Shown: positions 25,754-60,823 of the stretch, in pieces | Layout of the letters: each line of letters opens with the position of its first letter | Position numbering within the stretch: position 1 is the stretch's first letter | The notes under the pieces: model-generated | The model's database searches: none | What the model saw: only the letters and a program-made list of their open reading frames with translations | What the model was told of the DNA's origin: nothing | Assembly: GCA_963738405.1 (NCBI GenBank) | Contig: CAVTWJ010000011.1 | Location: forward strand, 27,903 to 91,902 | DNA length: 64,000 nucleotides | From: a candidate division FCPU426 bacterium | GTDB lineage: Bacteria; Oederibacteriota; Muellerivitia; Muellerivitales; Muellerivitaceae | Reading direction: 5' to 3' | Program-made: the position numbers and the translations under genes

Positions 25754-25827
25754 TGGGAGATCGTCTAATGGTAGGACAGCAGATTCTGGATCTGCTTATC
25801 TAGGTTCGAGTCCTAGTCTCCCAGCCA
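25754..25827 (+). tRNA. tRNA-Gln (anticodon CTG)
   Basis: Acceptor stem TGGGAGA/TCTCCCA, anticodon arm GCAGA-TTCTGGA-TCTGC, T-arm CTAGGTTCGAGTCCTAG, encoded CCA. Confidence 0.97.
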
Positions 25828-33704: not shown

Positions 33705-35595
33705 GGTGCCCCAACCCTTTCGATTTTCCTGGTGGTTTCTGCCACTGCTCGCGGGCTTTCTCCTTCTCTTCCTCTTTTCCGCCAAAGCCATCGTCAATTC
33801 GGACCTAGGCTTCCACTTAAAGAGCGGCCAGTGGATGGTTCAAAACCATGCCGTTCCCAGGGTGGATAGTTACACCTACACCTCGGCAGGGAACCCCTAT
33901 GTGGATTCCCATTGGTTTTATCAATTGGTACTTTATGGAGTTTATAAAGTTGGAAGTTATCCGGCTCTAACCCTCATGAATATGGCGGTTCTGGGCGCGG
34001 TTTTTATGCTCATTCTTGTTCGCTTTCGTCTGGCCCAGGCGCCTCTTTGGGCCTATTCACCCCTCATGGTCACGGCGGTATTTTGTATCGAACGCAGGAT
34101 TCTCATCCGCCCTGAAATCTTTTCCTGGTTTCTCCTTTGCGCCACGCTGGTCGTTTTGGACCTCTGGTATATGGAAAAGAAGAACCTCTTATGGGTATTG
34201 GTCGTTCTTCAGTTTTTTTGGGTGAACATTGAGGGACTGTTCGTTTTGGGCTGGATTGTCACGGCCTCCTATTGGGCCGGAAGCTGTCTCAAACGCAAAA
34301 GATTAGACAAAAAACTACTGCAATATGGGTTGATGGCCCTAGCCGCGGATTTGGCAAATCCTAATTTCATCACTGGCATGGCCTATCCCTTTTCCTTTAT
34401 CTCGAAACTTCAAGGCGATATTTACCATGAAACCATCACGGAACTTTTTTCCGTCTCTAAGTTTTTGTCCAAGCAGAACCTGCATTTCGACTCTAATTTG
34501 AACCTTTTTGTCTTTTTTGCCTTTGCGGGGGTTACCTTTGCGCTGGTGTTGTTAACCTTCCGGAATCGAAAAGCACATGAAATGCTGATTTTGGGGATAT
34601 TCTTTTATTTGGCCATGACCGCGGTGAGAAACATTCCTCTTTTTGTGCTGACGGCCCTTCCGATTTGCGCTGTTTCCTTGCGCGATTTGAAACCCCGTTG
34701 GGATGGCTGGGTGGGGAAGGCCATTCCCTTGGTTTGGACAAAGCGAAACCTTCCCATTCTTTTGACCCTCTTGTGTTTGCTTTTTGGCCTTCGGATTGTC
34801 ACCAATGCCTATTACCTTTCCGACCGCAGGTCGGAAAGGTTTGGGTTAGGGTTGGATAAAGACCAAATGCCGGTGGGCGCGGCTGAATTTCTGACCCAAA
34901 ACCATCTCGACGGCAAGATCATCAACATGACCAACTTCGGGGGGTGGTTCGATTGGGCGGCGCCCCAGCCCACCTTTATTGACGGCCGGTGGGAAATCCA
35001 AAACGGCGATATTTATAAACAATATTTGGATATGGCCTTCAACAATGGTCTTGCCCGTGGGGTCATTGTCTATAACCCACAATTGATCGTGTTTGAACCC
35101 CGCTATCCCCCCTCTTGGGTCAAGCAATTGATCCAGATGCCCGACTGGCGGCCCATTTACCTGGATGGATGCGCGGCTATTTACGCGAAAAAGGATTACG
35201 ACCCTCAAATACCGGCGTTGGAAGATAAGAATATTTTAAATGGGTTCGGCCTCAAGACGGCTAGCGACGCGGAAACGGAAAATGCCCTCAACCTTATCCA
35301 TCCCTCGTCCTTGGGCTCTTGGCTTGATGGTTTTATCAACCCGCAAAGCTATCCCTTGGGACTTCTGAATGGAGGCGTTTTCGCCAGTGATAATAACGAC
35401 CCCGTCCTCTCGAGCGCTTTCTACCTGGAAATGCTTCGGGAGACGGGGGGCCTCTATGAGGAAATTTGGTTTGATCTGGCCAACGAGAGCCTGAAATTGA
35501 GGAATTTAGAAACCGCGAAACTTTGTTATCGCAAGGTCCTGGAGGTTGATCCCTCCAACGGCATCGCAAGGCAAATGGCTCTCAAGAATTTTTAA
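33670..35595 (+). CDS. Polytopic membrane protein, probable GT-C-fold glycosyltransferase-like, with C-terminal TPR
   Basis: DLGFHL..G.W after TM1, RPEIFS, WVNIEGLFVLG, FIDGRWE, ~11 TMs, terminal TPR. The start may be GTG 33706. Confidence 0.65.
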   Translation: MQFPGWKLDFHKVPQPFRFSWWFLPLLAGFLLLFLFSAKAIVNSDLGFHLKSGQWMVQNHAVPRVDSYTYTSAGNPYVDSHWFYQLVLYGVYKVGSYPALTLMNMAVLGAVFMLILVRFRLAQAPLWAYSPLMVTAVFCIERRILIRPEIFSWFLLCATLVVLDLWYMEKKNLLWVLVVLQFFWVNIEGLFVLGWIVTASYWAGSCLKRKRLDKKLLQYGLMALAADLANPNFITGMAYPFSFISKLQGDIYHETITELFSVSKFLSKQNLHFDSNLNLFVFFAFAGVTFALVLLTFRNRKAHEMLILGIFFYLAMTAVRNIPLFVLTALPICAVSLRDLKPRWDGWVGKAIPLVWTKRNLPILLTLLCLLFGLRIVTNAYYLSDRRSERFGLGLDKDQMPVGAAEFLTQNHLDGKIINMTNFGGWFDWAAPQPTFIDGRWEIQNGDIYKQYLDMAFNNGLARGVIVYNPQLIVFEPRYPPSWVKQLIQMPDWRPIYLDGCAAIYAKKDYDPQIPALEDKNILNGFGLKTASDAETENALNLIHPSSLGSWLDGFINPQSYPLGLLNGGVFASDNNDPVLSSAFYLEMLRETGGLYEEIWFDLANESLKLRNLETAKLCYRKVLEVDPSNGIARQMALKNF

Positions 35596-35625
35596 AGCCG
35601 CCGGTTTGAAATCCCCGGCTTTAGC
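35523..35625 (+). repeat. Left copy of a diverged ~100-bp direct repeat (gene 3' end plus downstream 30 bp)
   Basis: Manual alignment to 53020-53121 shows about 11 substitutions and 1 gap. Confidence 0.9.
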
Positions 35626-35936
35626 CAAGGACGTGCGAACTACGCGCGTGGCAGCCGTGCCAACCGGTCCCCTTAAGGGGATCCGTCGTGGTGGTGAAAG
35701 AATAGGTTTTGTTTGAATCTCTAAGGATCGGTCAAGCCTTGCAACCTTCGAAGAAAAACGATTGGAAAAACCCCAAAACAGGCGATTATCTACCGAACCC
35801 AAGATCTCAAGCCCTGTGAATACCCCTCTTTCCCACCCGGTTCCATGTACCGGAGTTTATTTACCAACCTAAGGGACAAAAAAATGCTCAGGTATCACGG
35901 TACAATGGAATAAACCTGTTGGGTTAAAGCATTAAG

Positions 35937-36524
35937 GTGTTAGGAGATCTTTTGGAAGCAAGGGAATTAGTCCAAAAAGTCCTCCAGGGCGACGCGAAGG
36001 CGGCCCAGGAATTCGTGGATCGGTACCGAGGCTATATGTATAAGACCTGTTCCAACATCCTGGGCTATCGCGACCCCGATGCCGAAGACATGGTGCAAGA
36101 GGCATTTATCATTGTTTTTCGCAAGCTCTCCAAATTCGAGTTTCGTATATCACTGGAACCCTGGCTCGCCCAAATCTGTGTTTATTTATGCTTTCGCCAT
36201 ATCAGGAAACGGATGCGTATGATTTCCAAATTAGATGAGGATTTGGAGTCGCTGGCCCTTCCTTCCGCTTTGGCCCGCCAGGAGCGGCTGGAGGAGGAAA
36301 ATTTAAGGGCGCAAAAACAAGTTTTTTTGGACTTGTGTTTGAAACAAATCGGTGAAGATTGCCGCAAGATCATTGAATTAAGGGAAAAAGAGGAAAAAAG
36401 CTACGCCGAGATCGGGAAATCGATGAGTATCCCCATCGGCACCGTCATGTCGAGATTATCCCGCTGTAAACAGGCGCTCATTACGCTAGCCCAGCAACGA
36501 TTGAGGGATAAAAAGAATGGATGA
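35937..36524 (+). CDS. ECF sigma-70 factor
   Basis: DAEDMVQEAF (region 2), SYAEIG....IPIGTVMSRLSR (region 4.2). Confidence 0.95.
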   Translation: MLGDLLEARELVQKVLQGDAKAAQEFVDRYRGYMYKTCSNILGYRDPDAEDMVQEAFIIVFRKLSKFEFRISLEPWLAQICVYLCFRHIRKRMRMISKLDEDLESLALPSALARQERLEEENLRAQKQVFLDLCLKQIGEDCRKIIELREKEEKSYAEIGKSMSIPIGTVMSRLSRCKQALITLAQQRLRDKKNG

Positions 36525-37161
36525 TTTGGTTAAAGCTTACTTTGAGAGGAACCTGTCCGAGGCGGAAGCCGGGGAACTGGAAAACCTCCTGAAAAATTCA
36601 CCCGAAAAGGCCCAACAATTCGCGGAATTGTCGGAAAAGGCCTATTTGGCCACAGGCCTCCCTGCGCATCAATGGCCAGGGCATTCAATCTCCATTCCCA
36701 AAATCGGAGGATTGGGTGCCAGCTGGAAATGGTGGCTGGCCCTTAGCGCCGCCAGCCTGGGTGCTTTGCTTTGGCATTTGAAAACCCAGCCTCCCGCAGA
36801 TGTTCCTGTAAACCAAAGCGCCCCGGTCGTTTCAGGGGTTCAAAACCATTTGCCCCAGCCAGCTAAGCAGGTCATTCCTCAAAAAATCCAGGTTCTTCCG
36901 CCGCAAAAGCAATGGGAGGGGGATCAATTAAGCGTTTTGGTGGAGACGGAAAAATCATCGCTGGTGACGGTGCGCATCCTGGACGACCAGGGCAAGGAAG
37001 TCCGCGCTCTTTTCGCGGGAGTTTTGGACAAGGGACAATGGAATTTTGTTTGGGATGGCTTGTTGGCGAATGGGAGCCAGGCCTTGAACGGTTCTTACAA
37101 GATCCAAGTTCAGAACGGGTCCCGTATTCTCTCGAAAACGGTGCATCTCGATTACAAATAA
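36517..37161 (+). CDS. Single-pass anti-sigma factor with periplasmic FlgD/T9SS-CTD-like Ig domain
   Basis: Overlaps the sigma stop; N-terminal helical anti-sigma-like segment (LVKAYFERNLSEAEAGELENLL), TM WKWWLALSAASLGALLW, Pro-rich linker, then VTVRILDDQGKEVRAL..WDGLLANG..NGSYKI. Confidence 0.8.
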   Translation: MDDLVKAYFERNLSEAEAGELENLLKNSPEKAQQFAELSEKAYLATGLPAHQWPGHSISIPKIGGLGASWKWWLALSAASLGALLWHLKTQPPADVPVNQSAPVVSGVQNHLPQPAKQVIPQKIQVLPPQKQWEGDQLSVLVETEKSSLVTVRILDDQGKEVRALFAGVLDKGQWNFVWDGLLANGSQALNGSYKIQVQNGSRILSKTVHLDYK

Positions 37162-37345
37162 CCACGCCCATGGAATTGGGCCCTGATGGTTGACCCGAGG
37201 GGAAGATCTCGCCGATGGGTTGCCCCCACAACAAAAATCCGAAACGATTTTCCCTCCCGGTCCGCGAACCGGTTCCGGCCCCCGGATACACGCGCGGGAA
37301 CCGGAAATAACATTTAATGTGACTCCTTCAAAAGAAAACGACATA

Positions 37346-38797
37346 ATGAAAAAGAACTCCCGGGGGGTCTTTCACACCATGGGTTTAAAATGTTTCAAAC
37401 TTTTCGCCGCCCTTTTTCTCCTGGCGGCCCCTTCCATTCTCCGGGCCCAGTTCGGCGGCGACGGCATCTACGGCGTTTATTACAACGGCATCAATTTCAA
37501 TACCGCGGCTGTCAGCGAAGTGGACCCCAGTGTCGATTTCCTCTGGCAAGGATGCATGAACGTTCCAGGTGTTTCGGCTACGGCTTTTTCAGTGAAATGG
37601 ACGGGGCAGATCGAGCCCGCTTACAGCCAGGCTTACACCTTCACCGCTGCGGTGAACGGGGGAGTCAGCCTGATCGTCAACGGCCAGGTTTTAGTGAATC
37701 AATGGACCGAAAATACCACCACTTCTTACTTTACGGGCACCATCAACCTGACCGCAGGCGTGACGGTTCCCATGGAAGTCGATTATTTCGCCAACGGCGG
37801 AAGCCCCCAGATGCAGGTTTTCTGGCAGTGCGCTTCCCAGCCCTATGCGGTCATCCCCCGTGAAGATTCCTTTTCCGGCACGAATCCCGGACCCGCTCCG
37901 ACGCCCCAGGTCGTGACCGCCTGCGGGCAAACCGCCATGATCGACGGGGTCCTGAATGAGCCACCCTGGAATGAAGGGCTGCCCTTTTCCCAAGTCACCA
38001 AAACGGTCAGCGGGCAGGTTTTCGGCACCACAGCCCTTTTTAAGATCGTGTGGGATGCCAACAATTTGTATCTTGGAACCCAGGTGATGGACAGCCAGTT
38101 GACCAATGTGGGGACGAATGAGCCTTATACGGGTTCGGCGGTCGAACTTTTCCTTAATATGGATAATGACCGGTCCATCACCATCACTTCTCATGATTTT
38201 CAATATGTCTTTGGCTGGGGCCAAACCACTCCCTGGGAAAGTTTAAACCGGATCACTGGCGTCACGATGAAGACCCCCCCCACCTCAACTGGTTATATCG
38301 TCGAAGCGTCCATTCCCTGGTCCACCTTGGGGGTCACTCCGCTTCAAGGGACTGTGTTGGGGTTTGACGTAGGGGTGGATGTCAACCATAACGGCGGCAT
38401 CTGCAGGGACGGCCAAATGATGTTTAACGGAAACACCGATAATTATCTGGATACGAGCGCTTACGGCGTTTTGGATCTTGGCACGGCCTGTCCCACGCCG
38501 GTTGCCACCCCGCCCGCCCCCAATAATAAACCCTATGTTTATTCCAACCCTTCCAGCGGGCCCAATGTGACTTTCGTTTATGACATGGCGGAGAATGGCA
38601 GTGTCCAGATCGGCGTATTGAACGACGCGGGCGACGTGGTCGCCACGATACAAGACAAAAAACCCCCAGGCGTCCAGGAAAGCGTGTTGAACATCCAATC
38701 CTTCGCTCCTGGCCACTATTTCTACCGTGTGGTGTTAAGTTACAATTCCGGCCGGAAGAATGTTTATGCCCCGGCCGTCCTGGCTGTCTTCAAATAA
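37346..38797 (+). CDS. Secreted PA14 + CBM9/DOMON-like protein with CTD
   Basis: PA14 (GVYYNG.NF..VDP.VDF.W..FSVKWTGQI), CBM9-like (IDGVLNE..W, WDANNLYLG..V.D, GYIVEASIPWSTLG..GFDV), C-terminal YSNPS..PGHYFY..LAVFK. Confidence 0.85.
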   Translation: MKKNSRGVFHTMGLKCFKLFAALFLLAAPSILRAQFGGDGIYGVYYNGINFNTAAVSEVDPSVDFLWQGCMNVPGVSATAFSVKWTGQIEPAYSQAYTFTAAVNGGVSLIVNGQVLVNQWTENTTTSYFTGTINLTAGVTVPMEVDYFANGGSPQMQVFWQCASQPYAVIPREDSFSGTNPGPAPTPQVVTACGQTAMIDGVLNEPPWNEGLPFSQVTKTVSGQVFGTTALFKIVWDANNLYLGTQVMDSQLTNVGTNEPYTGSAVELFLNMDNDRSITITSHDFQYVFGWGQTTPWESLNRITGVTMKTPPTSTGYIVEASIPWSTLGVTPLQGTVLGFDVGVDVNHNGGICRDGQMMFNGNTDNYLDTSAYGVLDLGTACPTPVATPPAPNNKPYVYSNPSSGPNVTFVYDMAENGSVQIGVLNDAGDVVATIQDKKPPGVQESVLNIQSFAPGHYFYRVVLSYNSGRKNVYAPAVLAVFK

Positions 38798-38798
38798 C

Positions 38799-40151
38799 AT
38801 GGGCCCACCGGCTACATACTCCGACCAGAAAAATTCAAACCTCCATAAAATTTTGATCCTGATTTGCTGGCTTATCGCATCAACCATCTTCACCGCCCCA
38901 CCAGGGTCCGCCCAAACGGTTATCTCGAACGCCGCCGGGTCAGCGGAAAATCTTGAAAACGCCGGCGCGTCCGCCCGGGTGTACGGCATGGGCACGGCTT
39001 TCGTTGGGGTCGCTGATGACGTGTCCTCCCTCTTTTTCAACCCAGCGGGACTTTCAGGGATTTCCCTTTCTCAACTAGTCTTGAACCATAACAGCTACTT
39101 GGCGGGGACGTTCCAAGAGACCCTGGCTTATGGTTTTCCCGCCGGAAATGTGGGAGGCATTGCCACTGCGATCAATTACATTAATTGGGGCAGTTTGGAT
39201 TTGAGGGATAACTACGGTTTATCCCAGGGATCGTACACCGATACCGATGTGAGCCTGGTTTTGGGATGGGGCAAGGAATGGGCGAAGGGTTTATCGCTTG
39301 GGCTCGCGTTCGAGGGGGTCCAACAAAAAATAGTGAATAACCTCTACAACATCTTTTCAGCCCGGTTGGGATTGCTTTGGCGCCCGGCGGATTCCCTCAA
39401 GCTGGGAGCCTCCTATTCCAACCTGGGTACGGACGTGGCGGGGAATACTCTCGCCCAAAGCTTCCAGGCCGGGGGTTCCTATAGCCTCCCCTTGGAGAAA
39501 AACAAGGAACTTCTTTGGGCCATCACAGGAGACTGGGAACCCCTGGGGATCAGCAGGCTCCAATGCGGGATGGAAGGGGGATGGGACCGAACCGTAATGG
39601 TCCGGGCCGGTTACCAGACTCCACTTGACGGCCAGATAGCCGGGGGTTCCACGGCCTTTTCCCTAGGGGCTGGGTTGAAGCTGGGCGACTTCAGCCTGGA
39701 TTACGCCTATATCCCTTTCGGGGATTTCGGGGTTTCCAACCGGATCAGCCTCGGTTACGAGTTTCCGCCAGCGCCCAAGGAAGTGGTACAGGTGCCGGTG
39801 ACAGTCATCCAGCGGGTGATGGTTCCTGCGCCGACCCCCGCGGCCATATCCCCCGCGTTGGATTCTCCCAAAACTGCCATCCAAGTGAAATTCACGATTC
39901 CTTCCGGGCAGGGAGATGCCGGGGTCACGACCCTTTCCCCCACGCAGCAGGAAACCCGGATACAAAGCTTTCTTCAATTGATAAAAAGCGACCCTCAAAA
40001 CCCTAAGAATTGGTGGCAATTGGGGAGTCTTTACTACCAAATGCGTCAAAAAGCGTCCGCCATTCAGTGCTTTGAACAAGTCCTCCGTTTAAAACCGGAT
40101 AACAAGGCCCTCTCCGATTGGCTCGAAAAATATAAAGCCGCTGGTCCCTAA
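38799..40151 (+). CDS. PorV/PorQ-like beta-barrel with C-terminal TPR
   Basis: GASARVYGMGTAFVGVADDVSSLFFNPAGL, LDYAYIPFGDFGVSNRISLGYEF, Pro-rich linker, TPR (WWQLGSLYY..AIQCFEQVLRLKPDN). Confidence 0.88.
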   Translation: MGPPATYSDQKNSNLHKILILICWLIASTIFTAPPGSAQTVISNAAGSAENLENAGASARVYGMGTAFVGVADDVSSLFFNPAGLSGISLSQLVLNHNSYLAGTFQETLAYGFPAGNVGGIATAINYINWGSLDLRDNYGLSQGSYTDTDVSLVLGWGKEWAKGLSLGLAFEGVQQKIVNNLYNIFSARLGLLWRPADSLKLGASYSNLGTDVAGNTLAQSFQAGGSYSLPLEKNKELLWAITGDWEPLGISRLQCGMEGGWDRTVMVRAGYQTPLDGQIAGGSTAFSLGAGLKLGDFSLDYAYIPFGDFGVSNRISLGYEFPPAPKEVVQVPVTVIQRVMVPAPTPAAISPALDSPKTAIQVKFTIPSGQGDAGVTTLSPTQQETRIQSFLQLIKSDPQNPKNWWQLGSLYYQMRQKASAIQCFEQVLRLKPDNKALSDWLEKYKAAGP

Positions 40152-40202
40152 CAGGGTGCTGGAAAAGTCTTTTTCCACCCTGTCTACAGCCACGGGCCAT
40201 GA

Positions 40203-40283
40203 GCGAATCGCCTTAGATCCCTTGTTAATCAAGGGATGATTCGCGACACAGATTACGAAAAAATCCGTCGTTCGGACTTTTTT
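40203..40283 (+). terminator. Hairpins / putative terminator after the PorV-like gene
   Basis: ATCCCTTG-TTAAT-CAAGGGAT stem extended by GCGAATC/GATTCGC, then TCCG..CGGA-CTTTTTT. Confidence 0.35.
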
Positions 40284-40846
40284 ATCATTCCTGCTAAGCC
40301 ATTTAAAACCCGCCTTGTTTCTTCTTTGCCTTTTATAAACTCAAACTTGCATCACGGCAGAAACCGTCACAACCGTAGTCCCCATGAAAAATGTGGAACT
40401 ATCCTTCGTTCAAATTTCATGAAACAAGCGGTACGAAAGATTTCACCATTTACCAGCTCAGCCGGAATTTCCGAGCGTTTGGGAAATTCCGGGCAATCGT
40501 TGGACAAAGCCCGGCAAGGCCCTCCTGCTCCATTTTTTAAAAAAATATTTCAATCTTTTGGGAGTGCATCCATTAACGCTTTTAGGTTTACGGTTAAAAT
40601 TCGATGTTTTACCGCAGCCCGATCTATTTTTCCGATTTCCAAGATTTTCCGGTTCAGTGGAATAAACCGTCCTTGCCAAAGGATTTAAGTAATAGGGACT
40701 TCTTGGCTAACTCTTAAAAACAATCTTCGTGATCCGGGAAATCACCCCTGCCGGTTTTGAACATCCGGCCCAAACAACCAGGTTTGGGCATGATCGTTGA
40801 GGTGGGAGCGACGGGCAATTTATTTCTAATCTTGAAGGAGACGGAA

Positions 40847-43800
40847 ATGAAAAGCATAAAAACCGCATTGAAAGGCCTTTTCATTTTATTACTGGGGGGC
40901 AACCTTTCCGCGCTTTACGCCCAGGCCAACATCACCGTCAACGCCTCTTCGGTGGTCACGACAATCCCCTCCGAAATTTACGGCACCAATATGTCCACCT
41001 ATACCTCTTCCAACAACGGCTCGGACCCGGCTTATGTAACTGCCATGCAGGTTTCCGGCAGCCGCAACATCCGCTGGCCAGGAGGCTCTTACGCCGATTT
41101 CGTCAATTGGAATGATCTTCAATGCCAGGGCAACTTCGAGGTCACCACGCCCGAATACATCTCCTTCCTCCAGAAATTCGGTGGACAAATGCAGGCCATC
41201 GTGAATTTCAGCGGCAAATGGTGCGGCACCCAATATACCCATGCCCAGGCCGTCAGCCTAGCCGCCGCTTGGGTCTCTTGGAACCTGACTAACACGGGTT
41301 CGGCCCGCGCGAAATATTGGGAGATCGGGAACGAAGTTTACGGAAGTTGGGAAACAGGAGGACAGGGTTCGGCAGGTAGCACATTGACCGGCACGGTTTA
41401 TGGCAATTATTTCGCCGATTACTATAAAGCGATGAAAGCGGTGGACCCGACCATCCTCATCGGGGCGGTGGCTTCGCCCGGCGCCTCCGATTACAGCAAC
41501 TGGACCCCGCGTTTACTCACCGCCGCTAAAGCCGCCGGAGTCGTACCTGACTTCCTTATCATCCACAATTATCCTGATGGCGCAACCGGTACAGGTTCGG
41601 CCTTTGACGCCACAATGCTTAGCTACGCCAGCCTGCCCGCCAACTTCACTTCCAGCCTGAACAGCCTCGTGTCATCGAATGTGGGCAGTTCCTACGTCGG
41701 ACAAGTGAAATACTTTATGACCGAATACAACTCAGGTGGGCCAAGCGGTCCAAATGTTCAATGTGACGAGTACATCAATGCCATGTTCGTGTCCCAATGG
41801 ATCATGGAATGCGCCAAGAACGGGTGGATCGGGGCCAACCTATGGGCCGCAAAAAACGGAGGCACTCCCGATTACGCTTTCATCAATACCAGTACGGACG
41901 CCCCCTTCCCGGATTATTACATGTTCCCCATGCTGACGGGTAAGTTCGGCGCGGGAATGGTCTCCTGCTCCAGCAGCAATTCCAGTGTCAGGTCCTATGC
42001 TTCCAAAGATTCCGCCGGCAACCTTACCCTCTTCATGGTTAACAACAATCCAACTACGAGTATGCCGGCCAATGTCACAGTCTCGGGATTCACGCCGGCC
42101 TCATCAGGCCACGCCTGGGTGATGCTTCCTTCAGGAACTTCATCGAGCGGGGCGCCCCAGGAGGCGCCGAGCATTTCCATCAACGGAAACGTGAACCCGG
42201 CGCCTGCTAACCTTGCCTCTATCGCGGGGGTAGCCCAGACCACGGGATCAACCTTTACGGTCAATCTCCAGCCCAGCGAGATGGCCCTGATTGTCATTCC
42301 ACCTACCGGTGGTACTCCCCAACCCACGCCGACCAACACTCCCTGTACACCCACCGCCATCATCCCTTACCTTCAAGTGAACGCGGGGACATGGCAGCAG
42401 GCCAGCAGCGTTACCGTAAGTGCGGGCGCGACGGTCAACCTGGGACCCCAGCCCGTGACTGGCGGCACCTGGAGTTGGACCGGCCCCAACGGTTTTACCT
42501 CCACTTCGCGGGAGATCGACAACATCCCCTTGGGCGCCGGCAACAACACCTTCACGGCGACCTACACGAACGCCTGCGGCCTCAAGACCACGCAAACCTT
42601 CACCATCACGGTGCAATCCGCGCCGACGGCCACTTTCACCTTTACGCCCACCTCGGCGGCGCCTACAGCCACCTTTACCCATACCCCCACCCCGACTTCC
42701 ACGCCGACTCCGATTGTGTCCTCCAGCTGGCGTGTGAACGCCGGAGGCCCGGCCTATACCGATACCACGAGCAATATCTGGGCTTCGGACGAGAACTTTA
42801 GCGGCGGATCGGTGGCCAGCGGCGGGGCCGTGACCGGAACCTCCGATTCGACCCTTTACGACACCCAGCGCTACGGGAACAGTTTCAGCTATTCATTCTT
42901 CGTCCCTGCGGGCAGTTACCAGGTGACCCTGAAGTTTGCCGAGACCTATTCGGGCGACTTCTCGGCCGGAGCCCGTGTCTTCAACGTGGCCGTCAACGGG
43001 TCCACCGTGCTTTCCAACCTGGACGTTTACGCCCAGGTGGGCGCCAACACGGCGGACGACAAGCTGATCAACAACGTGTCACCCAGCGGAGGAATCATTA
43101 CTATCCAGTTCACGGGAGGGTCCAGCACGGACACGAACGCCATGGTGGAAGCCATCCAGGTCATTCCCCAGCCCGCCACGCCTACCTTTACGAATACACC
43201 GACGAGAACCTCGTCGGCCACGGGTACACCTACGGCAACGTCCACGGCCACTCGTACCTCGACGGCTACCTTTACCTTCACCCCGACGGTGACCAGTACG
43301 GCGACCGCGAGCCGGACCAGTACAGCGGTGCCGCCTACCGCGACGAATACGGCAATCCCGCCGACTTCGACCTTCACCTCGGTGCCTGCCACAGCGACCG
43401 CTACCAACAGCCCGGTACCGCCAACCGTGACCAATACGCCTGCTCCGCCGAGTCCAACGGTCTCCCAAACCCCAACCAATACCTATACGTTTACTGGGAC
43501 GGTTACCAACACCCCGGCGCCTCCAACGGCTACGAATACGGCCGCGCCGCCTACCTTTACCTTCACTGACACCCCGGTGCCTCCCACAACGACGGATTCG
43601 ATGACGCCTACGGCGTCCCTCACCGTTACGCCAACAAATAGTCCTGTGCCACCGACGGTGACGAACACGCCGGTACCGCCGACGGTCACGAATACCCCAG
43701 CGCCACCGACTGTTACCAGTACCAGCACGGCGGTTCCGCCGAGTCCAACGGTCTCCCAAACCCCAACCCATACCTATACGTTTACTGGGACGGCAACTTT

Positions 43801-44722
43801 CACCAATACCTTTACCCACACCAACACGCCGGTACCGCCGACTGCCACCTTCACGCCCACGCCTTCCGGGGCGGCGGCCTTGACCGTGGAACTGTTGTCG
43901 TCGATCACGGCCGATTCCACCAACAGCCCCCATCCTTTCATCGAGGTGGTCAATACCGGGAGCGGGTCCTTGAACCTGAACAACGTGGAAGTGCGCTATT
44001 GGTTCAACTGCGATTGCACCAACCAAAGCATCCAAACCTGGGTGGATTGGGCGGGGTTGATGCCCGCGGGGACTTCGGTGACGAATGACGTGTTGCACAC
44101 CACCGTAGCCACCAGCCAGGGCGGCCAGACCGACTACATCAGCTACAAGTTCACGGGCAACCTGGTGCTGCAGCCTGGGCAGGCTATCCAGATCCAGAGC
44201 CGGTTCAACAAGAGCGACTGGAGCAACATGCTCCAGGACAACGACTGGAGCTACGCGGCCTACACCAGCTACACCCCAGCGACCAAGGTCACAGCCTATG
44301 AGGGCGGGTCCCTGGTTTGGGGCCAAGAACCTTCCGGCTCCTCAGCGGCCTTGAAGGCGGCCAGCGTGATCGCCTACCCGAACCCCTCCACGGGGAACGG
44401 GGTAAACCTGGCGGTTAATTTGTCGGGTAACGGCACGGGCAGCTCCAATGCCAGCGCCAAGGCGCTGGGTTCGTCGGATGGAGAGGGAATTGATCCGAAC
44501 GCCGAGGTCACCCTCAAGGCCTATACCATCGACGGACGTCTGATCTGGTCGACCACGGTTTCAGGAGCTTCCATCGGGTCCACCGGCAACCATTCGGTTT
44601 ATTGGAACGAGAAGAACTACGTGGGGAATTACCTGGCCAACGGGCTTTACATCGTGACCTGCACGGTGAAATCCCAGGGCCAGACCAGCACCGCCACCTC
44701 TAAATTATTGATCCTGAGGTAG
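40847..44722 (+). CDS. Modular clan GH-A glycoside hydrolase: GH - Ig - malectin - P/T linker - CBM3 - CTD
   Basis: RWPGGSYAD, YWEIGNE, MTEYNS; WSWTGPNGF Ig; malectin (RVNAGG, LYDTQRYG, Y.VTLKFAE, RVFNV); CBM3 (VVNTGS..LNLNNVEVRYWF, IQSRFNKSDWSN..QDNDWSY); YPNP..KLLILR. Confidence 0.9.
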   Translation: MKSIKTALKGLFILLLGGNLSALYAQANITVNASSVVTTIPSEIYGTNMSTYTSSNNGSDPAYVTAMQVSGSRNIRWPGGSYADFVNWNDLQCQGNFEVTTPEYISFLQKFGGQMQAIVNFSGKWCGTQYTHAQAVSLAAAWVSWNLTNTGSARAKYWEIGNEVYGSWETGGQGSAGSTLTGTVYGNYFADYYKAMKAVDPTILIGAVASPGASDYSNWTPRLLTAAKAAGVVPDFLIIHNYPDGATGTGSAFDATMLSYASLPANFTSSLNSLVSSNVGSSYVGQVKYFMTEYNSGGPSGPNVQCDEYINAMFVSQWIMECAKNGWIGANLWAAKNGGTPDYAFINTSTDAPFPDYYMFPMLTGKFGAGMVSCSSSNSSVRSYASKDSAGNLTLFMVNNNPTTSMPANVTVSGFTPASSGHAWVMLPSGTSSSGAPQEAPSISINGNVNPAPANLASIAGVAQTTGSTFTVNLQPSEMALIVIPPTGGTPQPTPTNTPCTPTAIIPYLQVNAGTWQQASSVTVSAGATVNLGPQPVTGGTWSWTGPNGFTSTSREIDNIPLGAGNNTFTATYTNACGLKTTQTFTITVQSAPTATFTFTPTSAAPTATFTHTPTPTSTPTPIVSSSWRVNAGGPAYTDTTSNIWASDENFSGGSVASGGAVTGTSDSTLYDTQRYGNSFSYSFFVPAGSYQVTLKFAETYSGDFSAGARVFNVAVNGSTVLSNLDVYAQVGANTADDKLINNVSPSGGIITIQFTGGSSTDTNAMVEAIQVIPQPATPTFTNTPTRTSSATGTPTATSTATRTSTATFTFTPTVTSTATASRTSTAVPPTATNTAIPPTSTFTSVPATATATNSPVPPTVTNTPAPPSPTVSQTPTNTYTFTGTVTNTPAPPTATNTAAPPTFTFTDTPVPPTTTDSMTPTASLTVTPTNSPVPPTVTNTPVPPTVTNTPAPPTVTSTSTAVPPSPTVSQTPTHTYTFTGTATFTNTFTHTNTPVPPTATFTPTPSGAAALTVELLSSITADSTNSPHPFIEVVNTGSGSLNLNNVEVRYWFNCDCTNQSIQTWVDWAGLMPAGTSVTNDVLHTTVATSQGGQTDYISYKFTGNLVLQPGQAIQIQSRFNKSDWSNMLQDNDWSYAAYTSYTPATKVTAYEGGSLVWGQEPSGSSAALKAASVIAYPNPSTGNGVNLAVNLSGNGTGSSNASAKALGSSDGEGIDPNAEVTLKAYTIDGRLIWSTTVSGASIGSTGNHSVYWNEKNYVGNYLANGLYIVTCTVKSQGQTSTATSKLLILR
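42347..43440 (+). repeat. ~1.09-kb near-identical block (Ig-malectin-linker) repeated at 45910-47003
   Basis: Constant offset 3563; only three substitutions noticed by eye. Confidence 0.92.
43826..44697 (+). repeat. ~0.87-kb near-identical block (CBM3-CTD) repeated at 47275-48146; more diverged copy at ~52180-53000
   Basis: Constant offset 3449; encoded CBM3-CTD nearly identical in the two proteins. Confidence 0.92.
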
Positions 44723-44850
44723 GGAAAAGCTCGAAATTTGCCACAAGAATCGAAGAGAAATAAATGAAGATTTTTACTTTTGAATCAAGACAAGGTTGAA
44801 AAAGGGAGTCGCTAATAACGGGTTTAGAAACGAACTAGGGGAGGTTGAAG

Positions 44851-47800
44851 ATGAAAATATTCAAAGCCGTGCTGCCGGGACTCGTGATCCTATTGTTGGG
44901 GGCGAACGTTTCAGCGCTATACGCCCAAACCATTCCCACCTCGTTCTCATGGACATCGACCGGCCCTATCATCAGCGCCAAGAGCGACGCCACCCACAAT
45001 ATAGTCTCGGTCAAGGACCCATCAACCGTTTACTACAACGGCCAGTGGATCGTTTACGCCTCCAATGCTAACTCCGCTGGCGGCTGGGGCATGGAATACC
45101 TGCACTTCACCGACTGGAGCCAGGCCGGTGCCGCAACACCCTACTTCATGGATGACAACCCCAACTTCTCGGGCTATCACACCGCGCCGCAAGTGTTCTA
45201 TTTCGCCCCGCAGAACAAGTGGTACCTGATCTTCCAGAGCGGCCAGCCTCAGTATTCCACCAACAGCGACCCCACCCAGCCCCAGAACTGGACCGCTCCA
45301 AGGAATTTCTTCGCCTCGCAGCCCTCGAATGTGAGCGCTTGGCTCGATTTCTGGGTCATCTGCGATTCCACCAATGCCTACCTGTTCTTCTGCGGCGACA
45401 ACGGAAACTTCTACCGCAGCTCAACCCCCCTCGCGAACTTTCCCAACGGCTTCAGCGATCCCACTATCGTCTACTCGGAAGCCAATTCCGCCAATCTCTT
45501 CGAGGCCGACAATGTCTATACCGTCGAGGGGACCGGTATGTACCTGGCTAACATCGAGTGCATGGGTCCCAATGGGCACCGCTTCTTCCGGGCCTTGACC
45601 GCGACCAGCCTCGGCGGCGCCTGGACCCCGCTCGGCAATACGTTAAGTTTCAATACCCCGTTTTTGGGATTGGACAACGTTACCTTTCAATCCGGTGTCA
45701 CAACCTGGACCGACGACTTCAGCAGCGGCGGGGCGCTCATCGACGGCAATGACCAAACCGATCCGATCAACATCAACAACCTTCAGTTTCTCTACCAGGG
45801 CGTCAATCCAAATGTTCATGTCACGTCCTACGCACTGCTTCCCTACCAACTCGGCCTGGCGACCTCAAACGCCAACAAGCCCACTAGCCCGACCCCGACC
45901 CCCGGCTGCACACCCACCGCCATCATCCCTTACCTTCAAGTGAACGCGGGGACATGGCAGCAGGCCAGCAGCGTTACCGTAAGTGCGGGCGCGACGGTCA
46001 ACCTGGGACCCCAGCCCGTGACTGGCGGCACCTGGAGTTGGACCGGCCCCAACGGTTTTACCTCCACTTCGCGGGAGATCGACAACATCCCCTTGGGCGC
46101 CGGCAACAACACCTTCACGGCGACCTACACGAACGCCTGCGGCCTCAAGACCACGCAAACCTTCACCATCACGGTGCAATCCGCGCCGACGGCCACTTTC
46201 ACCTTTACGCCCACCTTGGCGGCGCCTACAGCCACCTTTACCCATACCCCCACCCCGACTTCCACGCCGACTCCGATTGTGTCCTCCAGCTGGCGTGTGA
46301 ACGCCGGAGGCCCGGCCTATACCGATACCACGAGCAATATCTGGGCTTCGGACGAGAACTTTAGCGGCGGATCGGTGGCCAGCGGCGGGGCCGTGACCGG
46401 AACCTCCGATTCGACCCTTTACGACACCCAGCGCTACGGGAACAGTTTCAGCTATTCATTCTTCGTCCCTGCGGGCAGTTACCAGGTGACCCTGAAGTTT
46501 GCCGAGACCTATTCGGGCGACTTCTCGGCCGGAGCCCGTGTCTTCAACGTGGCCGTCAACGGGTCCACCGTGCTTTCCAACCTGGACGTTTACGCCCAGG
46601 TGGGCGCCAACACGGCGGACGACAAGCTGATCAACAACGTGTCGCCCAGCGGAGGAATCATTACCATCCAGTTCACGGGAGGGTCCAGCACGGACACGAA
46701 CGCCATGGTGGAAGCCATCCAGGTCATTCCCCAGCCCGCCACGCCTACCTTTACGAATACACCGACGAGAACCTCGTCGGCCACGGGTACACCTACGGCA
46801 ACGTCCACGGCCACTCGTACCTCGACGGCTACCTTTACCTTCACCCCGACGGTGACCAGTACGGCGACCGCGAGCCGGACCAGTACAGCGGTGCCGCCTA
46901 CCGCGACGAATACGGCAATCCCGCCGACTTCGACCTTCACCTCGGTGCCTGCCACAGCGACCGCTACCAACAGCCCGGTACCGCCAACCGTGACCAATAC
47001 GCCGCTGCCTCCGACTGTGACGAATACCCCGGCCCCACCTACTGTCACAGACACACCAATGCCCCCGACGCCAACTGGAACCAGCACGCCCGTTCCCCCC
47101 ACGGCGACGGATTCGATGACGCCTACGGCGTCCCTCACCGTTACGCCAACAAATAGTCCTGTGCCACCGACTGTTACCAGTACCAGCACGGCGGTTCCAC
47201 CGAGTCCAACGGTCTCCCAAACCCCAACCCATACCTATACGTTTACTGGGACGGCTACCTTCACCTTTACCAATACGCCGGTACCGCCGACTGCCACCTT
47301 CACGCCCACGCCTTCCGGGGCGGCGGCCTTGACCGTGGAACTGTTGTCGTCGATCACGGCCGATTCCACCAACAGCCCCCATCCTTTCATCGAGGTGGTC
47401 AATACCGGGAGCGGGTCCTTGAACCTGAACAACGTGGAAGTGCGCTATTGGTTCAACTGCGATTGCACCAACCAAAGCATCCAAACCTGGGTGGATTGGG
47501 CGGGGTTGATGCCCGCGGGGACTTCGGTGACGAATGACGTGTTGCACACCACCGTAGCCACCAGCCAGGGCGGCCAGACCGACTACATCAGCTACAAGTT
47601 CACGGGCAACCTGGTGCTGCAGCCTGGGCAGGCTATCCAGATCCAGAGCCGGTTCAACAAGAGCGACTGGAGCAACATGCTCCAGGACAACGACTGGAGC
47701 TACGCGGCCTATACCAGCTACACCCCAGCGACCAAGGTCACAGCCTATGAGGGCGGGTCCCTGGTTTGGGGCCAAGAACCTTCCGGCTCCTCAGCGGCCT

Positions 47801-48171
47801 TGAAGGCGGCCAGCGTGATCGCTTACCCGAACCCCTCCACGGGGAACGGGGTGAACCTGGCGGTTAATTTGTCGGGTAACGGCACGGGCAGCTCCAATGC
47901 CAGCGCCAAGGCGCTGGGTTCGTCGGATGGAGAGGGAATTGATCCGAACGCCGAGGTCACCCTCAAGGCCTATACCATCGACGGACGTCTGATCTGGTCG
48001 ACCACGGTTTCGGGGGCTTCCCTGGGATCGACGGGGAACCACACGGTCTATTGGAACGAGAAAAACTACGTGGGGAATTACCTGGCCAACGGGCTATACA
48101 TCGTGACCTGCACGGTGAAATCCCAGGGCCAGACCAGCACCGCCTTATCCAAAATTCTAATCCTAAAATGA
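44851..48171 (+). CDS. GH62 alpha-L-arabinofuranosidase - Ig - malectin - linker - CBM3 - CTD
   Basis: SFSWTSTGP, VKDPS.VYYNG.W, APQVFYFAPQNKWYL.FQ, LDFWVICD..YLFF..DNG..YRS, LFEA.NVY, FLYQG..P..Y..LPY.LGL. Confidence 0.93.
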   Translation: MKIFKAVLPGLVILLLGANVSALYAQTIPTSFSWTSTGPIISAKSDATHNIVSVKDPSTVYYNGQWIVYASNANSAGGWGMEYLHFTDWSQAGAATPYFMDDNPNFSGYHTAPQVFYFAPQNKWYLIFQSGQPQYSTNSDPTQPQNWTAPRNFFASQPSNVSAWLDFWVICDSTNAYLFFCGDNGNFYRSSTPLANFPNGFSDPTIVYSEANSANLFEADNVYTVEGTGMYLANIECMGPNGHRFFRALTATSLGGAWTPLGNTLSFNTPFLGLDNVTFQSGVTTWTDDFSSGGALIDGNDQTDPININNLQFLYQGVNPNVHVTSYALLPYQLGLATSNANKPTSPTPTPGCTPTAIIPYLQVNAGTWQQASSVTVSAGATVNLGPQPVTGGTWSWTGPNGFTSTSREIDNIPLGAGNNTFTATYTNACGLKTTQTFTITVQSAPTATFTFTPTLAAPTATFTHTPTPTSTPTPIVSSSWRVNAGGPAYTDTTSNIWASDENFSGGSVASGGAVTGTSDSTLYDTQRYGNSFSYSFFVPAGSYQVTLKFAETYSGDFSAGARVFNVAVNGSTVLSNLDVYAQVGANTADDKLINNVSPSGGIITIQFTGGSSTDTNAMVEAIQVIPQPATPTFTNTPTRTSSATGTPTATSTATRTSTATFTFTPTVTSTATASRTSTAVPPTATNTAIPPTSTFTSVPATATATNSPVPPTVTNTPLPPTVTNTPAPPTVTDTPMPPTPTGTSTPVPPTATDSMTPTASLTVTPTNSPVPPTVTSTSTAVPPSPTVSQTPTHTYTFTGTATFTFTNTPVPPTATFTPTPSGAAALTVELLSSITADSTNSPHPFIEVVNTGSGSLNLNNVEVRYWFNCDCTNQSIQTWVDWAGLMPAGTSVTNDVLHTTVATSQGGQTDYISYKFTGNLVLQPGQAIQIQSRFNKSDWSNMLQDNDWSYAAYTSYTPATKVTAYEGGSLVWGQEPSGSSAALKAASVIAYPNPSTGNGVNLAVNLSGNGTGSSNASAKALGSSDGEGIDPNAEVTLKAYTIDGRLIWSTTVSGASLGSTGNHTVYWNEKNYVGNYLANGLYIVTCTVKSQGQTSTALSKILILK

Positions 48172-59359: not shown

Positions 59360-60823
59360 ATGAAATCTCGTTCATTTTCTTTAGCTATAAAAGCGCTCCC
59401 AATTTGGATGGTGCTTGCCTGCTCCCAGGTTTTGGCCCAAACCTACGCTTGGCAAAACGTGGTCGTGCCCGGCGGGGGTTTCGTCTCAGGGCTTGTCTAC
59501 AGCCGAGCCGTCTCGGGTTTAATCTACGCGCGTACCGACATTGGTGGTTTTTATCGTTGGGATAGTCCGACGAGCCGGTGGATTCCCCTGACGGATATGT
59601 TCGGGATCAACCAAGTCACCCTTTTCGGCGGGGAGAGCATCGCCCCGGACCCGGTCAACGCCAACAATGTCTACGCGGCGGCCGGTATGTACGAGGGCAG
59701 CGGAAACGGGGTTATCCTTTCCTCCACCAACCAAGGCAATACCTGGACCATCAATTCCATCCCGGTCCCTATGGGGGGCAACGAAGACGGCCGCCAAGCG
59801 GGGGAGCGGCTGGCGGTGGACCCAAACTTGAACAGTATTCTCTATTTCGGTTCCCGCAGAAACGGGCTTTGGAAAAGCACCAACTCGGCGGCCAGTTGGA
59901 GCCAGGTGACCTCTTTCCCGACGAACGGGGACGCGGGTTACGGCATCAGCTATGAGATTTTCCTTCCGGGTGGAAACCCTGGCACCGGGGCTGAAACTAT
60001 TTTTGTGGGCGTGGATTCCATGAACGCCGGAAACAGCAGCCTGTACCGGTCCACCAACGCCGGAGCCAGCTGGGCCGTGGTCCCCGGAGGGCCCACCAAT
60101 ATGATCTCTCCCCACGCCTCCCTGGGAACCGACGGAAATTTGTGGGTGGCCTATGACAGCGGAGGCTATGGTCCCGGCGGGATCACCACCGGCCAAATTT
60201 GGAAACTCAATACCTCGACCCTCGCCTGGACCAACGTAACGCCCGCAATCGGGCCGCCCGCAGGCAACGGGGGTTATGGCGACGTCAGCGTGGACGCCGA
60301 GAACGCCCAGCATGCCATAGCCTCCACACTCGATTGGTGGGGTGGTCCGGACAAGGTCTTCCAGACGGTCAATGGGGGGGCCAGCTGGACGGTCATCGCC
60401 AACATCACCGAGGGTTGGAACGCCGGTCCTTTCTCGGTCTACAACGACAACGGCGCCATTTGGACCTTGGGTTGCGGCACCGAAGCCGGAGGCACGGGTT
60501 GGGCGGGAAACTGCAAGATCGATCCCTTCAACTCCAACAACGCCTTTTACACGTCGGGAGGGGAACCCGGGGGCGGAGGGATTTGGTTCAGCGGCAACAT
60601 CAACGCCGCCGCTCAGCCCGCGGGCGTCACCTGGACTTTCGATACCTATGGGGAGGAAGAAACGGCGCCTATTTTCCTGCCCGCCTCCGCGGCGGGCGGG
60701 GTCTTCTTCAGCGCCGTGGGCGACATCGCCGGTATGCGCTACACCAACGTGGCCCAACCTTCAACCACGGGGGCTTATTGCAACCCGCAGTTCGGCAGCA
60801 TGGCAGGCATCGATTTCGCGGCC
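59360..60823 (+). CDS. GH74 xyloglucanase-like beta-propeller, 3'-truncated by chimeric junction
   Basis: YAWQNV..PGGGFVSG, IYARTDIGG.YRWD..W.PLTD, GGNEDGR..GERLAVDPN, GEEETA, SAVGDIAG; similarity stops after GIDFAA. Confidence 0.9.

Follow-up and report, generated by a model that had tools for sequence, protein, structure and literature searches.

A sigma factor module with a FlgD-type Ig domain on its anti-sigma-like protein and a type IX-like cargo/carrier pair in a candidate division FCPU426 bacterium

The module described here lies in a 64-kb stretch (hereafter the window) of contig CAVTWJ010000011.1 from a candidate division FCPU426 bacterium (assembly GCA_963738405.1), and consists of four co-directional open reading frames (ORFs) on the + strand, between positions 35937 and 40151. 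These encode an extracytoplasmic function (ECF) sigma factor, an anti-sigma-like membrane protein whose sole periplasmic domain is an immunoglobulin-like (Ig) domain of the FlgD type, a lectin-type protein bearing a C-terminal domain (CTD) like those of type IX secretion system (T9SS) cargo, and an outer-membrane barrel with a tetratricopeptide repeat (TPR) tail. Among ECF sigma/anti-sigma systems, the module stands out by a sensor domain and a conserved partnership with T9SS-like components that are both rated as new, and it belongs to none of the systems with which it was compared. It may couple the ECF sigma factor to the T9SS-like cargo/carrier pair and work like a cell-surface-signalling glycan sensor, a reading put forward tentatively and at less than even chances. 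The four genes are:

35937..36524, + strand: ECF (group 4) sigma-70 factor (ORF 1, 35937-36524, 195 aa), from matches to Sigma70_r2, Sigma70 r4_2 and TIGR02937
36517..37161, + strand: anti-sigma-like single-pass membrane protein (ORF 2, 36517-37161, 214 aa), from its ORF, its family and the sigma gene upstream in related loci
37346..38797, + strand: lectin-type, non-catalytic cargo with signal peptide, PA14, CBM9 and T9SS type-A-like CTD (ORF 3, 37190-38797, 535 aa, open from 37190)
38799..40151, + strand: PorV/PorQ-family outer-membrane barrel with TPR tail (ORF 4, 38760-40151, 463 aa, open from 38760), from its match to NF033709

The first of these genes encodes a protein that holds σ2 and σ4 domains only (Sigma70_r2, E=8.2e-12, and r4_2, E=4.3e-9, in Pfam), scores 86.8 bits against the general ECF model TIGR02937 (cut-off 42.9), and lies far under every cut-off of the equivalog models (SigW, RpoE and others). 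Judged by this two-domain composition and by the match to the general model, it is a group 4 ECF sigma factor. Its real start is probably the TTG at 35952 rather than position 35937, because of the AGGAG at 35942-35946 and the alignment with the orthologues of three related loci (L001-L003). The anti-sigma-like gene starts 8 nt before the end of the sigma stop codon, overlapping it, and the ATG of the barrel gene at 38799 directly follows the cargo stop. An initial annotation, made from the sequence alone, had described this four-gene content, with an ECF sigma factor at its head and a CTD cargo and a PorV-TPR barrel as the next genes; the ORFs were found where it had placed them, all on the + strand, and the profile matches and domain calls agree with it.

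The partnership is conserved in related genomes. One scan of species-representative genomes returned 11 loci, six of which (L001-L006) hold full-length relatives of the anti-sigma-like protein at 31-42% identity, the other five matching through the Ig domain only (three Marinobacter FlgD genes, the multi-repeat protein of Mesobacillus at L009 and a Binatia protein). The order sigma, anti-sigma, CTD cargo and PorV-like barrel found in the window recurs in four of the six related loci (L001-L004), the barrels of L001 and L004 being cut by the contig end, and L005 presents the order barrel-TPR, sigma, anti-sigma. A sigma gene thus lies directly upstream of the anti-sigma-like gene in five of the six loci, and the link to a PorV-like barrel, a synteny that the initial annotation had proposed to look for, is kept in five of six as well. 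The cargo is a non-catalytic PA14, CBM9 and CTD protein in the window and in L001-L003. Since the cargo of L004 is different and L005 keeps the other three genes, the constant parts of the module are the sigma factor, the anti-sigma-like protein and the carrier barrel, and the cargo can change. At L003 the module is flanked by proteins of the same CTD type, one of which shares the N-terminal sequence of a GH62 protein of the window.

The anti-sigma-like protein was modelled with AlphaFold2 (AF2) from an alignment of 12 relatives, and is divided into the following parts:

36517..36654, + strand: N-terminal cytoplasmic three-helix region, residues 1-46, presumed to bind the sigma factor (AF2)
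36721..36783, + strand: transmembrane helix, residues 69-89 (AF2, hydrophobic window)
36784..36918, + strand: disordered Pro/Gln-rich periplasmic linker, residues 90-134 (predicted local distance difference test score, pLDDT, <50)
36919..37152, + strand: C-terminal FlgD-type Ig-like beta-sandwich, the sole periplasmic domain (PF13860, AF2)

In the model, three N-terminal helices (residues 4-10, 15-27 and 29-45; pLDDT 80-90) are followed by the helix at 69-89, by disorder from 89 to 135, and by one beta-sandwich at 139-211 with a pLDDT of about 85-90. FlgD_ig (PF13860) is the only Pfam match of the 214-aa protein (E=3e-13; 50 bits against a gathering score of 27; residues 142-200), so that model and profile agree with the single extracytoplasmic domain announced earlier for this protein. 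With a score above gathering and an Ig-like beta-sandwich fold, the domain is a member of PF13860. The protein holds a cytoplasmic N-terminal domain and a membrane anchor in place of a signal peptide and passenger, and carries its Ig domain at the extreme C-terminus.

This architecture defines a large family. A word-indexed search yielded 11 relatives at 36-89% identity, all with PF13860, and in their alignment with the query the Ig domain is the best-conserved part. A HMMER search of 1.84 billion representative proteins gave 585 matches at E<=1e-3 and 238 at E<=1e-10. Among the best 150 representatives, 146 are proteins of 147-338 aa matched across both their N- and C-terminal parts, and the other four are long proteins with multiple FlgD_ig domains. 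The query and 144 of these 146 were aligned as 145 short members (two short matches from the word-indexed search being omitted), and FlgD_ig is matched by 144 of the 145. A hydrophobic window scoring at least 1.5, taken as the transmembrane helix, is present in 119 of 145, and WDG or WNG in 143 of 147 family members. The linker between membrane helix and Ig domain has a median length of 60 aa (range 11-156) and a median proline fraction of 0.16 across the 145 members. The tail after the Ig domain has a median of 0 aa, and is of no more than 5 aa in 132 of 145 members and longer in 13.

The N-terminal region is where the anti-sigma function would reside. The protein has the layout usual for anti-sigma factors, a conserved helical N-terminus in the cytoplasm and then a membrane helix, and the gene has the class I anti-sigma arrangement, being adjacent to, co-oriented with and 3' of an ECF sigma gene and encoding a single-pass protein with its N-terminus inside. 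An anti-sigma role is presumed for the 214-aa protein because of the overlapping genes, the sigma gene upstream in five of six loci, the helical N-terminus with its membrane helix, and feature leads from the Atlas. The latter, which are leads only, score 0.84-0.89 for residues 1-95 and include clusters in which zf-HC2 is found on 39%, DUF4880 on 65% and RseA_N on 100% of members; for the whole protein all leads score below 0.9, among them one cluster from Bacteroidota, 34% of whose members have Por_Secre_tail, and one from Ignavibacteriota, 45% of whose members have zf-HC2. Sequence profiles gave negative results throughout. The HxxxCxxC zinc motif occurs in none of 147 family members; the zf-HC2, RskA, RseA_N and FecR profiles do not match the protein at E<=0.1; neither zf-HC2 nor any other anti-sigma family matches any of the 145 aligned members at E<=0.01; no anti-sigma family of Pfam appears at E<=10 for the first 70 residues of four of these proteins, for which one 15-bit match to DUF7667 was seen; and no anti-sigma structure is found by the family profile among PDB sequences at E<=10.

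The Ig domain is placed on the FlgD side of its superfamily because comparisons by hidden Markov model (HMM), by Foldseek and by family profile against the PDB point that way. The HMM of the family C-termini scores three Marinobacter FlgD proteins at 43-46 bits and three CTDs of the window at 35, 21 and 12 bits, and the other four of the seven window CTDs are not matched at E<=1. In the opposite direction, an HMM made from those seven CTDs gives the anti-sigma domains 13-24 bits, no better than the 23-25 bits for FlgD. In Foldseek searches of the PDB, Salmonella and Pseudomonas FlgD come on top (E about 2e-4 to 1e-3 and 26-34% identity, with about 2e-4 and 30-34% for the best), with the T9SS CTDs of PorZ, NucA, RgpB and RemZ lower (E 5e-3 to 1e-2; 12-19% identity). 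Against PDB sequences, the family profile finds FlgD alone, down to E=2.4e-12, the next matches starting at E=0.11, and matches no T9SS CTD at E<=10.

A relationship to the cargo CTDs nevertheless emerges at the level of whole profiles, where hhalign aligns the anti-sigma family with 15 cargo CTDs at 96.5% probability (E=7.5e-10, 68 columns, 16% identity). The models of the Ig domain and of the cargo CTD are both small beta-sandwiches and have Foldseek neighbours in common (4g5a, 2p9r, 8jmw, 3osv, 3c12 and 3sd2), and a basic residue opening the last strand is found in the anti-sigma domain and in most aligned cargo CTDs, but not in the three aligned FlgDs, a weak hint. The extreme C-terminal residues vary across the anti-sigma family. 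Taken together, sequence and model comparisons place the anti-sigma Ig domain and the cargo CTDs in one fold class and superfamily, with the former closer to FlgD. This fits the labelling of some Cytophaga type B CTDs as FlgD_ig superfamily members (PMC11611037). The models of the T9SS type A CTD (TIGR04183/PF18962) do not match the Ig domain at E<=0.1, Por_Secre_tail matches none of the 145 family members at E<=0.01, and the homology to the local CTDs appears in profile-profile comparison only.

The initial annotation had attributed to the anti-sigma domain the same signature that ends seven secreted proteins of the window, and had suggested a search of residues ~135-214 with FlgD_ig and TIGR04183. 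Seven CTD-like ends were indeed counted, and the search recovered FlgD_ig together with the profile homology to the cargo CTDs. However, the W.G...G....G.Y pattern is a superfamily hallmark that is present also in flagellar FlgD, its W.G part is missing from the CTD of the module's own cargo, the HMM finds three of the seven ends, TIGR04183 is not matched, and FlgD is the nearer relative.

The cargo, whose probable start is the ATG at 37346, holds PA14 (E=3.1e-19) and CBM9_1 (E=1.1e-28) domains in Pfam and no catalytic domain. Its CTD falls below the cut-offs of Por_Secre_tail (PF18962; 18.3 bits against 27) and TIGR04183 (14.6 against 23), the latter being exceeded by the orthologues of L001-L003 (25.6-30 bits). 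The CTD model has a pLDDT of 89.5, and its Foldseek neighbours are weak and generically Ig-like; PorU ranks 7-8 among them, and FlgD 16 and 29. The barrel scores 107.3 bits against NF033709 (cut-off 90), with 102.9 for its counterpart in L002 and 113.1 in L003, and remains below the equivalogs for PorV (NF033710; 37.5 against 250) and PorQ (NF033711; 81.7 against 220). Its C-terminus consists of a Pro-rich linker of ~60 aa and a TPR at residues about 400-450 (about 39942-40124; TPR_8, E=8.5e-8). This barrel family comprises 102 homologues at E<=1e-10, with TPR Pfams among the matches listed, and in 79 aligned homologues the tail is strongly conserved, with W416 and Y423 invariant.

Proteins with CTD-like ends are abundant in the window, the seven of them ending at 2600, 7540, 16806, 38797, 44722, 48171 and 53008. 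Six of the seven close with K or R behind a hydrophobic stretch, to which an S8 protease adds GNP. Three times in the window a cargo gene is directly followed by a carrier barrel gene, and two of the three barrels hold TPR tails, so that a dedicated carrier adjoining its cargo seems to be the rule in this genome. Besides the pair of the module, the S8 protease with a FlgD_ig-like CTD (5834-7540) precedes a TPR-less barrel (7537-8529; 56 bits against NF033709, below cut-off), and a 2435-aa CTD protein (9499-16806; 26.1 bits against TIGR04183, cut-off 23) precedes a multi-TPR barrel (16806-18437; 99.1 bits against NF033709, cut-off 90). Within the window, both TPR-bearing PorV-like barrels adjoin membrane signalling genes, and the TPR-less barrel at 7537-8529 does not. 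The multi-TPR barrel is followed by a 987-aa frame (18320-21283) with HATPase_c_2 (RsbW-like kinase), sCache_3_2, HAMP and SpoIIE/PP2C phosphatase domains and terminal transposase-type helix-turn-helix domains (IS481/IS630-like). This frame either encodes an unusual sensor of the partner-switching kind or runs on into an insertion-sequence remnant.

The genes that follow the module encode further CTD proteins. The nearest is:

40847..44722, + strand: malectin/CBM3 protein with PT-rich linkers and a CTD, a candidate regulon member (Pfam, NCBIfam)

Its gene is the first in a group coding for hemicellulase-type proteins, the next members being of GH62 (44845-48171) and double-malectin (48698-53008) type. 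The setting, with its GH62, malectin and CBM3 CTD proteins, resembles a polysaccharide-utilisation locus (PUL). The last ~95 residues are near-identical in three malectin/CBM3 proteins (44435-44722, 47884-48171 and 52721-53008), with the C-terminal ends of 40757-44722 and 44845-48171 differing at few positions, which suggests recent duplication or gene conversion. The long PT-rich linkers of these three proteins give rise to many spurious antisense ORFs.

A promoter-like motif is repeated ahead of the sigma gene and of this downstream gene:

35907..35935, + strand: promoter-like motif 1, GGAATAAACC-N10-AAAGCATTAA, directly upstream of the sigma gene
40659..40687, + strand: promoter-like motif 2, which repeats motif 1 and lies ~160 nt ahead of the ATG at 40847

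The window and L001-L003 share a conserved stretch of 75 nt ahead of the sigma start, and motif 1, which is also written as GGAATAAACC-N10-AAACACTAAT-type, lies at a constant distance from that start in all three loci. With the four sigma leaders as its sole input, an nhmmer model detected one further site each in the window (40635-40698; E=1.4e-4) and in L002 (6752-6803; E=0.019). Copies follow the barrel gene in syntenic position in L002 (6762-6790) and L003 (13856-13884, first seen by eye). The pattern GGAATAAASC-N10-AARSAYYNA has exactly two matches in the window (35907 and 40659); L002 and L003 have two apiece, and L001, with a contig that stops early, has one. All of these sites precede the sigma gene or come shortly after the barrel, and the gene that follows motif 2 encodes a CTD-tagged protein in the window and in L003. 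We read the two conserved blocks as possible -35 and -10 elements of an ECF-type promoter. Among the compared intergenic regions, none holds a copy of the motif between the anti-sigma and cargo genes; inverted repeats are found there in L001 and L003, not in the window.

Several observations surround these sites. The second copies of the motif keep a ribosome-binding site and start codon. The tiny ORF behind them has 4 codons in the window (40698-40730), 3 in L002 (about 6803-6825) and 16 in L003 (about 13885-13950), and could be a leader peptide or the leftover of a duplicated sigma 5' end. From the barrel stop to motif 2, the ~500 nt at 40152-40650 hold no convincing gene, and a 150-aa ORF at 40236-40688 reads like non-coding sequence. 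The inverted repeat between the anti-sigma and cargo genes has the form TGAATAA-N5-10-TTATTCA and lies ~45 nt upstream of the cargo start in L001 (about 10790-10815) and L003 (about 10875-10897); it is partial in L002 and absent from the window, and may be an operator or an RNA hairpin. A first search pattern, GGAATAAACC-N7-GTTAAA with up to three mismatches, found its own site only, with 0.72 expected by chance, and was replaced by the nhmmer model. Predictions of sigma-70 promoters (5, against 4.1 in shuffles) and terminators (6, against 9.8) over 35500-41000 were uninformative.

In the mechanism proposed for the module, the lectin would be exported and kept on the cell surface by its own dedicated carrier barrel. 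The TPR tail of the barrel would be periplasmic, as the two termini of outer-membrane barrels normally are, and the Ig domain of the anti-sigma-like protein would act as a receiver that touches the TPR tail or the cargo/carrier complex in that compartment. The flexible linkers of both proteins (a median of 60 aa in the anti-sigma family and ~60 aa in the barrel) could be long enough to bridge the periplasm. Binding of an arabinoxylan-type glycan to the lectin would alter this contact and expose the anti-sigma factor to regulated proteolysis, and the freed sigma factor would then act on both motif-bearing promoters, those of its own module and of the downstream CTD proteins. This glycan-sensor reading, tentative as it is, is favoured because of the synteny and, beyond it, the lectin-only cargo, the setting of the locus, and the TPR barrels beside membrane signalling genes. 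In a bolder and more doubtful form, the PorV-like barrel with its periplasmic TPR tail would be an outer-membrane signal transducer that relays glycan binding by the lectin to the anti-sigma factor through the FlgD-type Ig domain, representing a new class of cell-surface signalling assembled from type IX parts outside Bacteroidota and controlling CTD-tagged hemicellulases through the shared motif.

Several points weigh against the glycan-sensor reading. No anti-sigma profile fits the N-terminus of the anti-sigma-like protein, for which the role draws on gene order, topology and weak Atlas leads. Control of the motif by the module's sigma factor is putative, and so is the contact of the Ig domain with the TPR tail or the cargo; the spacing between the two conserved blocks is the authors' own reading, and the pattern GGAATAAASC-N10-AARSAYYNA was derived from the sites that it matches, which makes its zero matches in shuffles partly circular. 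We know of no signalling role for PorV-type carriers. None of the T9SS core genes (SprA/Sov, PorK/L/M/N and PorU) was found in the 64-kb window, where ORFs of at least 180 aa were compared with Pfam and a subset of them with NCBIfam. At L004 the cargo is a CTD protein of 995 aa, unrelated to the others, in which no lectin domain could be recognised, and at L006 the anti-sigma-like gene follows an autotransporter, with neither sigma nor barrel gene adjacent. A complex prediction of the mature barrel with its TPR tail (residues 50-461) and the linker and Ig domain of the anti-sigma-like protein (120-214) gave ipSAE values of 0.23 and 0.20 against a mark of 0.32, in a single run without controls, and is counted on neither side.

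Other readings share the remaining probability. The initial annotation had proposed that a membrane-tethered decoy CTD could let the sigma factor sense the state of the export machine or the partners that bind CTDs. In its present form, the Ig domain would pair with un-exported CTDs or compete with them for a periplasmic CTD-binding factor, so that the sigma factor reports the load of the pathway and raises the levels of carrier and cargo. The profile homology of the Ig domain to the cargo CTDs, the overlapping Foldseek neighbours of two small beta-sandwiches, the position at the extreme C-terminus in nearly all family members (132 of 145), the basic residue shared with most cargo CTDs and absent from the three FlgDs, and the constant presence of a PorV-like carrier and CTD cargo in the module all speak for it, as does the finding that the CTD of PorA binds PorY in the periplasm, activates PorXY-SigP and still works when tethered to the inner membrane (PMC12152298). 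However, the Ig domain is nearer to flagellar FlgD than to the local CTDs, the solved T9SS CTDs or TIGR04183/PF18962; its C-terminal residues are variable and 13 of 145 tails exceed 5 aa, whereas six of the seven window cargos end in the hydrophobic run with K or R. In the solved Flavobacterium translocon, moreover, CTDs are reported to bind extracellular loops of PorV inside the SprA pore (PMC10994853), which is out of reach of a domain tethered to the inner membrane. The homology to CTDs and the PorV/CTD synteny on which the decoy idea was built have held, but a FlgD-like domain and an unreachable PorV site do not suit it, and this sensing of pathway load is rated as rather unlikely.

It is judged just as improbable that the two proteins form an ordinary ECF pair responding to envelope stress or another ligand, in which the Ig domain is a generic sensor or spacer, and the cargo and barrel are regulon members or co-transcribed neighbours rather than the input. 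FlgD_ig is a widespread, general-purpose domain, present in five to six copies in the Mesobacillus protein of L009 and in multiple copies in the four long proteins of the best 150; regulation of adjacent genes is common for ECF sigma factors, for which the duplication of the motif would be equally expected; and the anti-sigma-like gene of L006 stands in an unrelated context. On the other side, the link to a PorV-like TPR barrel persists in five of six loci at an anti-sigma identity of 31-42%, the cargo is a lectin only, and the best-conserved region of the family is the Ig domain itself, which argues for a specific, conserved partner. A far less probable alternative denies the anti-sigma role altogether, making the 214-aa protein a structural or assembly factor of the inner membrane (an Ig tether or chaperone) for the cargo/carrier pair, with the sigma gene co-transcribed by chance. 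The failure of the N-terminus to match any anti-sigma profile at any threshold tried, and the role of FlgD itself as an assembly scaffold, as given in PDB entry titles, are in its favour; the 8-nt overlap with the sigma stop, the sigma gene directly upstream in five of six related loci, the anti-sigma-like layout of three-helix N-terminus and transmembrane helix, and the Atlas leads to three anti-sigma N-terminal families (zf-HC2, DUF4880 and RseA_N), leads as they are, count against it. The probability left over from these readings goes to other mechanisms.

Among described systems, the PorA-PorXY-SigP cascade of Porphyromonas gingivalis is, by analogy, the nearest precedent. PorA, a small lectin-fold CTD protein that also binds PorV, is reported to act upstream of the ECF sigma factor SigP (PMC7712824; PMC12152298); its CTD binds PorY in the periplasm, PorA keeps working when anchored in the inner membrane, and a build-up in the periplasm has been proposed as a robustness signal (PMC12152298). 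The general idea of the initial annotation has a precedent because the PorA CTD serves as a periplasmic regulatory ligand upstream of an ECF sigma factor (PMC12152298). Unlike this module, however, the cascade has its CTD on a free cargo and signals through a histidine kinase and a response regulator, whereas here the Ig domain is fused to the anti-sigma-like protein, is of the FlgD type rather than the TIGR04183 type, and is found in a non-Bacteroidota organism with no PorX or PorY in the window.

Like the module, the FecA/FecR/FecI system has three tiers encoded together next to nutrient-acquisition genes: a barrel of the outer membrane that extends into the periplasm, an anti-sigma factor that crosses the membrane once and has a periplasmic receiver domain, and an ECF sigma factor. 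The ECF sigma/anti-sigma/SusC-like systems of Bacteroides PULs have a three-tier layout like that of FecIRA. The resemblance is functional only, as none of the four module proteins matches a TonB-dependent transducer, STN, or FecR/DUF4880/DUF4974 profile at the thresholds used, the barrel here is a PorV/PorQ-family protein with a TPR tail, and the presumed ligand binder is a separate secreted lectin. Cell-surface signalling through TonB-dependent transducers (PMC5411451, PMC11637429) is a functional precedent. Group ECF240 has been linked to 'carbohydrate scavenging' (PMC7826278). Sensing of plant polysaccharides by anti-sigma factors is described for the SigI/RsgI pairs of Clostridium thermocellum, where RsgI proteins hold PA14 and carbohydrate-binding module (CBM) sensor domains (PMC6852018) and secreted glycoside hydrolases are under control (PMC6852018, PMC10328401). 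There, in a monoderm, PA14 and CBM domains are part of the anti-sigma factor and the sigma factor is of the SigI type, whereas here the lectin is a separate CTD cargo beyond the outer membrane and the anti-sigma-like protein holds the Ig domain alone.

The direct succession of a cargo gene and its own barrel gene is shared with T9SS type B cargo and their PorP/SprF-like carriers (PMC9143113, PMC10994853). The carriers here differ in that they belong to the PorV/PorQ family and not to PorP, two of the three bear TPR tails, and one of the pairs is preceded by sigma and anti-sigma genes. FlgM is a soluble anti-sigma factor that is itself exported, so that the activity of sigma-28 reports the state of the secretion machine. 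That idea could be common to both systems; the protein described here, however, is anchored to the membrane and is not a homologue of FlgM; its one tie to the flagellar system is the Ig domain that FlgD also has. The literature search found no description of an anti-sigma factor with a FlgD_ig or CTD-like periplasmic domain, in line with the earlier remark that no described regulator with this architecture was known, and the ECF reclassification paper mentions none of FlgD, FlgD_ig, PF13860 or Por_Secre_tail in its text or in one supplementary file.

ECF sigma/anti-sigma pairs are classed largely by sensor domain and gene neighbourhood, and no description was found of a FlgD_ig sensor or of a neighbourhood with a T9SS-like cargo and a PorV-like TPR carrier. 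If the glycan-sensor mechanism is true, T9SS-type carriers would be wired directly into transcriptional control, the PorA finding of a CTD-type fold as a regulatory ligand would extend beyond Porphyromonas, and the module would be a diderm counterpart to the clostridial RsgI biomass sensors. The repeated motif offers a concrete, testable regulon. T9SS papers describe this secretion system as specific to Bacteroidota; PorV/PorQ-family barrels and type-A-like CTD cargo are found here in a non-Bacteroidota lineage (window and L001-L006), and the window documents such carriers and CTD-tagged cargo in a deep, uncultured branch. For GltX of the window, names at the phylum level first come up near 50% identity and are spread over Syntrophomonadaceae, Abyssobacteria, FCPU426, Bacillota and Saganbacteria.

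Outside these subjects, a palindromic repeat, TTGCTTCGTC...CTCGCAATGAC, with an internal GC hairpin, occupies intergenic positions in L001 (about 9120-9170 and 10700-10745) and L003 (about 10650-10820), where it flanks the module; it looks like a repetitive extragenic palindromic (REP) or miniature inverted-repeat transposable element (MITE)-type repeat, and is absent from the window at these positions. A search with Rfam at gathering thresholds and with ARAGORN gave a tRNA-Gln (CTG) at 25754-25827 as the sole match in the window. Towards its right end, two ORFs (59360-61216 and 61904-62617) have no family matches and odd-looking C-termini, and the GC content is 0.62-0.65 at 60001-64000 against about 0.50-0.55 elsewhere, so this end could belong to another segment of the genome or mark an assembly join.

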